Source: Escherichia coli (lineage in GTDB: Bacteria > Pseudomonadota > Gammaproteobacteria > Enterobacterales > Enterobacteriaceae). From it: a DNA stretch of 64,000 bases. Below the pieces are notes generated by a model. It had not been told where the DNA came from and searched no databases. It saw only the letters and a list, made by a program, of their open reading frames with translations. This document shows, in pieces, positions 24,821 through 33,728 of this stretch (positions are counted from its first letter, which is position 1; each line of letters opens with the position of its first letter). Both the position numbers and the translations under genes were made by a program. The stretch lies in the NCBI RefSeq assembly GCF_030013595.1, contig NZ_CP122768.1. The stretch is one strand, 5' to 3'.

Positions 24821-25591
24821 TTAAATGACTTTGCGAAGATTTTCAGCAAATGCGGCGATCTGTTCTTCGCCGTCGCCTTCAATCACGATGCGCTGACGCT
24901 CGCGCTGTTTCGGCGCGGCAACCTGTTGTTCTGACCAGGCTGCCTCTGCGTTAAAACCGATATCCGCCGCCGACCATACCTGGACTGGCTTTTTCGCCGC
25001 GCCGAGAATGGCTTTCATCGAAGGAATTTGTGGGGAGTTGATATCAGTGGAAACAGCAACAACCGCAGGCAGCGGAATGCTTAAGGTTTCTGTTTCATCT
25101 TCCAGTTCGCGCTCAACGGTGAGGGTATCTGCCGTCAGGGAGATAATTTTGCTGACGCCGTTAACTGCCGGAATATTGAGGATTTCGCCTACCAGCAAAC
25201 CAACCTGCTGGGCATAAAGGTCGGAAGAACCATCGCCACAGAGGATCAAATCAAAGCCTGCTTTCTGGGCGGCTGCAGCCAGTGCGCTCGCCGTTTGTTG
25301 CGGCAGTGCCTGCTCGAACTGGTCATCAATCACCACAATCAGTTCATCCGGACCGCGCGATAGCACATCTTTACGCCCTTTGGCGTTGGTCAGGGCTTTA
25401 CCGCCCACACTTAGGGCCGTCACCTGCGCCTCTGCTGCCTGTTGTTTTAGCTGGCAAGCCGCTTCAATAGCGTTGAGATCGTATTGGCTTATTTTGGCAT
25501 CGGCTTTACTGAAGTCTAACGAACCATCAGCATTATTGACCGCAATATCCTGTTCATCAGGCACGCACTTATAGCAAGTAATAATCTTCAT
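24821..25591 (-). CDS. fixA: Electron-transfer flavoprotein beta-subunit homolog FixA, 256 aa
   Basis: ORF contains [20 protein letters not shown]...; start at the Met giving 256 aa. Confidence 0.9.
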
Positions 25592-25686
25592 TGCATCTCC
25601 AGAAATCATGAAGGAAACGTCGTTCATATCGGTGGTGTTAATTACAGATATCACGCCCTTTAATTTGGAAATAAAACTTTAATCAC

Positions 25687-25813
25687 CAATATTGAAAATG
25701 TCACACGCAGATAAATCCAACTTTCAATATTGTTAAGTCCCTCACCAATATTGAAAACATGGCGTAGCAAAAAGAAATTTTCAATATTGCTTTATGGATC
25801 ACCAATATTGAAA
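25687..25813. promoter_or_regulatory. cai-fix divergent control region with five copies of CAATATTGAAA / TTTCAATATTG half-sites
   Basis: Half-sites at 25687, 25722, 25746, 25779 and 25803 in alternating orientation, giving two composite inverted repeats with 13-bp spacers (25722..25756 and 25779..25813); fits the known architecture of CaiF binding sites. Confidence 0.7.
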
Positions 25814-26060
25814 GTCAGATGCTATTTTTTTACTCACAATCAAACTCATCACATTGATAAACAATGAATATTTACACAAAGACGCCCTGTTTTTACCCGA
25901 TAAAAAACTGTGACTAACATCACAGAACGCAGCCAATTGAATACCCATTATGAGTTAGCCATTAACGCGTCCACGAGGTTAATAATAATTATATTAAATG
26001 TTAACAAAAATAAAACAAACGGGAACGCAAAATAAATATTCGTTTTCACAGTGGAATTAA

Positions 26061-27578
<1,518 letters not shown>

Positions 27579-33332: not shown

Positions 33333-33728
33333 TTAACGACGCATACTCTTTGACAACATCATCTGCCACTTCTGCTCGCGGTTAAGTTCCGTGAGCGGAA
33401 CGGCAGGAATACGCGGCGTCTTTCTTACGCCGACTAATTTTTCCCGACTGTTATTGCGCAGGCGCGCGTAAATTTGCTCATCGATATCGACCACTTTACC
33501 CAGTCGCTGACACTGGCATCCCCGCCCTTCCAGCTTATTAGGGATCATCTTAACTTCGCAGCTTATTTCTGTGACTTCCGACAGAATATAAGTCAGGGTA
33601 TTAACCGCCTTGCTGTGTTCAATATCGAAATGAATAGAGATCTCTCTTGCTATCACCCACCGATTTTCAGCCATCATCCATTCGGCGATTAACAAGTAGA
33701 GTGGTTTTTCAACATATCCTTCACACAT
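33333..33728 (-). CDS. caiF: Transcriptional activator of the cai/fix operons CaiF, 131 aa
   Basis: ORF contains MCEGYVEKPLYLLIAEWMMAENRWVIAREISIHFDIEHSKAVNTL...; start at the Met giving 131 aa. Confidence 0.88.
   Translation of the reverse strand: MCEGYVEKPLYLLIAEWMMAENRWVIAREISIHFDIEHSKAVNTLTYILSEVTEISCEVKMIPNKLEGRGCQCQRLGKVVDIDEQIYARLRNNSREKLVGVRKTPRIPAVPLTELNREQKWQMMLSKSMRR

Follow-up and report, generated by a model that had tools for sequence, protein, structure and literature searches.

Five exact copies of a short motif, CAATATTGAAA, lie in the intergenic region between the divergent genes fixA and caiT of Escherichia coli. Boxes 2+3 and 4+5 are already known sites of the activator CaiF, and this part is not new. 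The remaining copy, here called H1 or the lone box, stands unpaired within the predicted core promoter of fixA. Our reading, held with moderate confidence, is that all five motifs are CaiF boxes in a control region shared by fixABCX and caiTABCDE, and that the lone promoter-embedded box switches fixA on.

This reading has two parts that deserve separate grades. The lone box probably binds CaiF. Whether that binding activates fixA from within the core promoter is finely balanced, and tilts slightly towards no.

The five boxes and their setting

The window is the whole stretch of DNA that was analysed, 64 kb in length. Within it, fixA and caiT are separated by 472 bp, and fixBCX and caiA follow on either side. 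The motif is found exactly at 25687-25697(+), 25722-25732(-), 25746-25756(+), 25779-25789(-) and 25803-25813(+), all between fixA and caiT, and nowhere else in the window. From base composition, 0.03 exact copies would be expected in 64 kb. If one mismatch is allowed, the observed count was reached in none of 100 shuffles.

The first-pass annotation had described five half-sites in alternating orientation between 25687 and 25813, arranged as two inverted repeats of 11-bp half-sites 13 bp apart plus one extra half-site, in the cai-fix divergent region. This description is exact in every coordinate. Both inverted repeats (boxes 2/3 and 4/5) are perfect over 11 bp, with 13-nt gaps at 25733-25745 and 25790-25802. 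Box 1, the extra one, is 24 nt away from box 2. The coordinates of all features are collected in Table 1.

Table 1 Features of the cai-fix region and caiF in the window, with the basis for each.
Feature	Position	Strand	Basis and remarks
fixA (electron transfer flavoprotein FixA), first gene of fixABCX	24821..25591, ATG 25591	-	NCBIfam NF002888, 532 bits, 1-256/256
Conserved block GG-T[TA]TTATTT adjoining H1, E. coli AGTTTTATTTC	25668..25678	-	Anchored 24-taxon alignment
Predicted fixA -10 hexamer TAAAGT	25676..25681	-	Promoter scan; 17-nt spacer; ends 7 nt before putative start 25669
Lone putative CaiF box H1, CAATATTGAAA	25687..25697	+	Exact match; 15-nt module TCACCAATATTGAAA with 5' TCAC is 25683-25697
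Predicted fixA -35 hexamer GTGACA	25699..25704	-	Promoter scan; conserved as GTGAC[AT]
fixA-proximal composite TTTCAATATTG-N13-CAATATTGAAA, one of F1/F2	25722..25756		Exact match to published consensus; centre 25739, about -70 from putative fix start
CRP-like core TGTTA-N6-TCACC in 13-nt spacer of fixA-proximal composite	25731..25746		Centre 25738.5
caiT-proximal composite TTTCAATATTG-N13-CAATATTGAAA, other of F1/F2	25779..25813		Centre 25796, about -127 from putative fix start, about -162 from putative cai start
Weak CRP-like core TGCTT-N6-TCACC in spacer of caiT-proximal composite	25788..25803		Read from sequence; 4 mismatches; centre 25795.5, -126.5 from putative start 25669
Perfect CRP core TGTGA-N6-TCACA	25909..25924		Centre 25916.5, -41.5 from putative cai start 25958
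caiT (L-carnitine/gamma-butyrobetaine antiporter), first gene of caiTABCDE	26064..27578, ATG 26064	+	NCBIfam NF002887, 940 bits
caiF, activator recognising the boxes	33333..33728	-	ORF; Pfam PF07180 CaiF_GrlA, 28.3 bits against a cut-off of 25

In every box, the 8-bp core CAATATTG is a perfect palindrome. This means that the 'orientation' of a box is defined only by its AAA/TTT flank and by the TCAC that may precede it. This TCAC extension is found before the three '+' boxes only, which makes the two arms of each published composite non-equivalent. The sequence CAGCGTTG is an altered form of the core, drawn up as a mutant design for the lone box.

The region is 100% identical to that of one E. 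coli genome, and of 5426 complete E. coli genomes 5394 carry it. The published CaiF sites were defined in E. coli K-12 MG1655, and that strain, too, has exact copies of all five boxes.

The known CaiF operators

The published CaiF operator reads 5'-TTTCAATATTG-N13-CAATATTGAAA-3' and is present as sites F1 and F2 (Buchet et al. 1999, as cited in PMC12083890 and PMC3680233). Boxes 2+3 and boxes 4+5 reproduce this operator letter for letter, and the K-12 half-sites are identical. Both pairs also share the 13-bp gap and the locus with F1 and F2; caiT and fixA are divergent here, and caiF is in the genome. Binding of CaiF to F1 and F2 comes from the literature, on the K-12 sequence (PMC12083890 and PMC3680233). 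The first-pass annotation had proposed CaiF activator sites and a comparison with published CaiF sequences; that comparison supports the proposal at both composites, and caiF itself lies in the window.

The lone box has the half-site and the TCAC extension in common with F1 and F2. It differs in that it has no inverted partner, and in that it sits in the predicted fixA core promoter and not upstream.

The only relative of CaiF in the PDB is GrlA (4kt5_C, phmmer, E = 0.001). The accessible literature gives CaiF no role at cai and fix other than that of activator. One further near-match to the box in the window, CAATATCGAAA with one mismatch, is at 33620-33630 and is probably due to chance. An autoregulatory site was considered for it; the box sits within the caiF coding sequence.

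Putative transcription start sites and CRP sites

The start of fix transcription can be placed through CRP. RegulonDB compares the CRP pair of fixAp with that of acsP2, and names -69.5 as the proximal activating position (PMC3531196). Across high-throughput data on CaiF (ChIP-exo, SELEX, DAP-seq) and entries for fixAp and caiTp, this remark was the one useful find. The core centred at 25738.5, which has two mismatches, is the only CRP core on the fix side with at most two. Taking -69.5 as applying to fixAp, this core puts the fix start at 25669. A start derived in this way, from a RegulonDB position and the sequence, would be at a T, an unusual base to start from.

On the other side, PMC3680233 names -41.5 as the position of a site at the cai promoter. 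In combination with the perfect CRP core, this position yields a cai start at 25958. Given that putative start, the core is centred as a CRP class II site would be. Its half-sites are kept across Escherichia species and the N6 between them varies. A terminator-like call at 25908-25925 (-) was discarded as an artefact of the consensus scan, produced by the palindromic CRP site and the T-run after it.

The two derived starts are 289 bp apart, which is reportedly also the distance between the fix and cai starts. A second fix CRP site is said to be at -126.5. We take this site to be the weak core TGCTT-N6-TCACC centred at 25795.5, which with its 4 mismatches is below the cut-off of the CRP scan.

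A scan with CRP and FNR patterns had been put forward in the first-pass annotation as a further check. The CRP half of it was productive, with the perfect core at 25909-25924 and the two-mismatch core at 25731-25746. The FNR half was not: the best matches to TTGAT-N4-ATCAA had 2-3 mismatches, and none of them was at the fix promoter.

Between the CaiF boxes and the cai core promoter there is a hypervariable patch of about 100 bp (25830-25935). Roughly one third of its bases differ from those of K-12 and of other Escherichia, among them E. albertii and E. whittamii. In the 240 bp and 140 bp that flank it, there are hardly any differences. Inside the patch, the CRP half-sites TGTGA and TCACA are kept and the 6 bases between them are changed. 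The allele of this window is at least 99% identical in only 586 of the 5394 E. coli genomes; most are at 90-95%. At the protein level, CaiT of the window has 100% identity to the Escherichia albertii representative NBRC 107761 and 98% to the species representative of E. coli; the intergenic DNA is 100% identical to that of an E. coli genome.

The lone box within the predicted fixA promoter

A promoter scan predicts -35 and -10 hexamers for fixA with a 17-nt spacer (25682-25698), and H1 is wholly inside this spacer. Counted from the putative start at 25669, H1 spans -28 to -18. The first-pass annotation had called the half-site at 25687 an extra, upstream one worth noting. It is real, noteworthy and conserved like the published half-sites. 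It is not upstream, being proximal to fixA and inside the predicted core promoter.

The likeness of H1 to the known sites extends beyond the box. A 16-nt module, ATCACCAATATTGAAA, is common to H1 and the right arm of the caiT-proximal composite (repeat family D2), and 15 of these 16 nt are also found in the right arm of the fixA-proximal composite. The accessible literature describes two CaiF sites only and makes no mention of a fifth box.

The exact placement of H1 relative to RNA polymerase is less firm. In an alignment of 24 taxa, the hexamers are conserved (as GTGAC[AT] and TAAnGT) only in the clade of Escherichia, Citrobacter, Salmonella and Phytobacter. Around the box in Edwardsiella, Pluralibacter and Proteus, scans for a pair of hexamers turned up no equivalent promoter; each gave an unrelated consensus match or none. 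Where H1 sits relative to the polymerase could therefore be off by about 5 nt or more.

The conserved block beside H1 offers another candidate. Within it, 10 nt past H1, the hexamer T[TA]TTAT (25671-25676) is kept in all taxa, as TTTTAT in E. coli and as TATTAT in the group of Hafnia, Edwardsiella, Budvicia and Leminorella. If this were the fixA -10 instead, H1 would span about -33 to -23 and overlap the -35 position.

Further downstream of H1, in the fix leader, the 24 taxa have a semi-conserved block at about 25633-25657 (-) with the core [AG]TGnTA..T.TAT. It reads GCGTGATATCTGTAATTAAC in E. coli and ATCATGGTATTTCTATTG in Hafnia and Edwardsiella. This block could belong to a second, more distal promoter, serve another factor as its site, or be an element of the leader RNA. 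In Pluralibacter, the promoter scan calls a promoter-like pair at this block.

Conservation across species

The caiT loci of 80 species were compared. Measured from its start, H1 is 95-96 nt away from the fixA ATG in most loci of Escherichia, Citrobacter, Salmonella, Pseudocitrobacter, Intestinirhabdus, Phytobacter, Pluralibacter, Yokenella and Proteus, and 93-99 nt from it in Atlantibacter, Trabulsiella and most Providencia. Outliers are Citrobacter sedlakii (82) and Providencia heimbachae (129). The fixed distance to fixA thus holds in most sampled genera of the Enterobacteriaceae and Morganellaceae.

The number of composites is far less constant. The E. coli-like group has two, Pluralibacter, Yokenella, Trabulsiella and Atlantibacter have one, and Proteus has three. 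Six taxa (Hafnia, Edwardsiella, Budvicia, Leminorella, Limnobaculum and Serratia sp. H1w) have the lone box and its neighbours, but none of their N13 pairs rises above shuffle level. For Edwardsiella, caiF has been reported (PMC2764856).

In five of these taxa (Leminorella, Limnobaculum, Budvicia, Hafnia and Edwardsiella) the lone box is further out, at a distance of 254-339 nt to the fixA ATG instead of about 96. Budvicia has a directly oriented pair of boxes, with offsets of 302 and 329 to that ATG and a distance of 27 bp. Leminorella and Limnobaculum have, besides the distal lone box, another exact copy (TTTCAATATTG) close to the fixA start codon, about 25 nt upstream.

When 24 taxa of four families are aligned on the box, TTCAATATTGGTGA[TC]-N3-GG-T[TA]TTATTT is nearly invariant; the 40 nt on the opposite side of the box lack this constancy. 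Among 25 loci that have all five boxes, the mean identity of H1 to its consensus is 0.993. For the same loci, the published half-sites are at 0.956-0.993, the N13 spacers at 0.81-0.85 and the cai-side flank at 0.60. Within Escherichia, substitutions are confined to the spacers and linkers; the five boxes have none. On this comparative evidence, selection acts on the lone box at least as strongly as on the known sites, and more taxa have retained it than have retained the pairs.

One sampled genome goes the other way. In the fixA-proximal region of Entomohabitans teleogrylli, the AATAAAAAC-TCACC context is kept and the CAATATTGAAA that should follow it is replaced by unrelated sequence; one composite is kept further upstream. 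This is the only apparent loss of the lone box among the sampled Enterobacteriaceae, with the composite retained, and it counts against our reading.

Outside these groups, no boxes with at most one mismatch were found in the 900 nt upstream of caiT in Shewanella, Ferrimonas, Campylobacter, Malaciobacter and Desulfovibrio.

A possible mechanism

CaiF and cAMP-CRP would be side by side at about -70 and -127 from the fix start, where CRP-like cores lie inside the composite spacers, and the separate perfect CRP site at -41.5 would serve the cai promoter. If the lone box does switch fixA on, one CaiF molecule would occupy it, loaded or stabilised there by the upstream CaiF/CRP complexes. It would then act directly on RNA polymerase or on the promoter DNA, and so turn fixA on. 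With the literature-derived start, the box would be between -35 and -10; it would overlap the -35 if T[TA]TTAT is the real -10.

Against this, the predicted 17-nt spacer requires no realignment of the MerR type, and a protein between -35 and -10 could equally hinder RNA polymerase.

A wider version concerns the history of the region. The unpaired box may be the ancestral, essential CaiF target, where a single CaiF on the 14-nt asymmetric site TTCAATATTGGTGA activates the fixA core promoter. F1 and F2 with their nested CRP cores would then be later add-ons, present in 0 to 3 copies between genera, which boost loading and couple the distant cai promoter. We put this forward tentatively, with more doubt than belief.

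Comparison with GrlA and other divergent regions

The nearest known parallel is GrlA, which belongs to the same protein family as CaiF (Pfam CaiF_GrlA) and is homologous to it. GrlA of EHEC and EPEC is described as acting, in a MerR-like way, through the 18-bp non-dyad spacer of LEE1 P1 (PMC4856446, PMC4730234 and PMC3130263, citing Islam et al. 2011). Its target is in the -35/-10 spacer, where the lone box would also be in the predicted fixA promoter, and has no dyad symmetry.

There are also differences. The LEE1 spacer is sub-optimal at 18 bp and the predicted fixA spacer is 17 bp. PMC4730234 gives spacer lengths of 18 bp for LEE1 and 19 bp for MerR targets; a strict MerR-type mechanism on an over-long spacer (18-20 bp) was rejected for fixA, where the predicted spacer is 17 nt. 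The LEE1 P1 spacer TTTAATGATAATGTATTT (upstream of ler, O157:H7) contains no CaiF box and has no convincing similarity to it. CaiF works with upstream paired sites and CRP, and LEE1 P1 is not reported to have these. As an analogy, then, the parallel is one of mode and not of membership.

Other divergent regions are known in which several CRP sites share an intergenic stretch and each of them serves a single promoter (PMC3105977), and those that combine CRP with a specific activator resemble cai-fix in this. What sets cai-fix apart is that its CRP-like cores are nested in the 13-bp repeat spacer of the activator, and that an extra candidate activator box is in the predicted core promoter.

Other explanations of the lone box

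The lone box might be the specific half of a third full site, F3, over the fixA -10 and start, on which a CaiF dimer would make one contact with H1 and a degenerate contact with the conserved AATAA[AT]AC block. H1 would then have a partner after all, one whose sequence the promoter restricts. The spacing invites this idea: the '+' boxes are 59 and 57 bp apart, which places H1 in register with the array, and in Proteus the three composites follow a regular 59-bp period. It would also account for the conserved block beside H1, which so far has no other explanation. Of the inverted partners for H1 at gaps of N12 to N14, the best is at N12 (25664-25674), matching 6 of 11 positions in E. coli and 7 of 11 in Providencia. 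A partner with five or more mismatches is in the range of shuffles (mean 8, lowest 5), and the gap needed is N12 and not N13. H1 as a composite of the F type was rejected on these grounds, its best partner at N12-N14 having 5 of 11 mismatches and being no better than shuffles. The two direct-orientation boxes of Budvicia argue for a single box as a self-sufficient unit. We consider a third full site with a degenerate second contact unlikely, although it fares better than what follows.

The box could also work in the negative. CaiF, for example without a co-activator or in excess, would occlude RNA polymerase there and keep fixA off until the upstream CaiF/CRP complexes have formed. A position inside the core promoter, at -28 to -18 or -33 to -23, is where such an operator would be, and the homologue GrlA has been reported as a repressor at flhDC (PMC9979310). 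A limiting role is nevertheless quite unlikely, as CaiF is described only as an activator, and as the taxa without composites, where the lone box is the only CaiF motif, would be left with no activating site.

That the box is a promoter element, read by RNA polymerase or by a factor other than CaiF, is improbable. Its identity to the half-sites would then have come from duplication of a 57-59-bp unit. Direct-repeat families D1 (51 nt, 73% identity) and D2, both present in the region, do show an origin by tandem duplication, and the box adjoins -10-like and -35-like hexamers. Spacers, however, are not normally constrained in sequence, which sits badly with an identity of 0.993 over 25 loci. The box is also kept in taxa whose flanks cannot be aligned, and a 15-nt identity with footprinted CaiF half-sites makes it unlikely that CaiF would fail to recognise it.

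A functionless remnant of a duplicated composite would explain the missing partner and the two sites of the accessible literature, but is very improbable: the box is better conserved than the spacers, occurs in taxa that lack composites, and keeps a constant distance to fixA in most sampled genera of two families, with four families having it overall.

Significance

Four of the five boxes are a textbook-level site that has been rediscovered. The new value is in the fifth, deeply conserved and embedded in a predicted promoter, and amounts to a modest refinement for a control region that is already well studied.

If CaiF does work inside the fixA core promoter, the current account of the CaiF regulon, with two sites that are both far upstream, would be incomplete. 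Carnitine biosensors built on CaiF and the fix promoter would, if this is true, gain a defined minimal operator to engineer.

It would also be the second instance of activation from within a promoter in the CaiF/GrlA family, and would thus bear on the virulence regulator GrlA. Should the lone box in addition be the ancestral CaiF target, it would make a second, independent case of the promoter-spacer mode that has been proposed for GrlA, which would then be a property of the CaiF/GrlA family.
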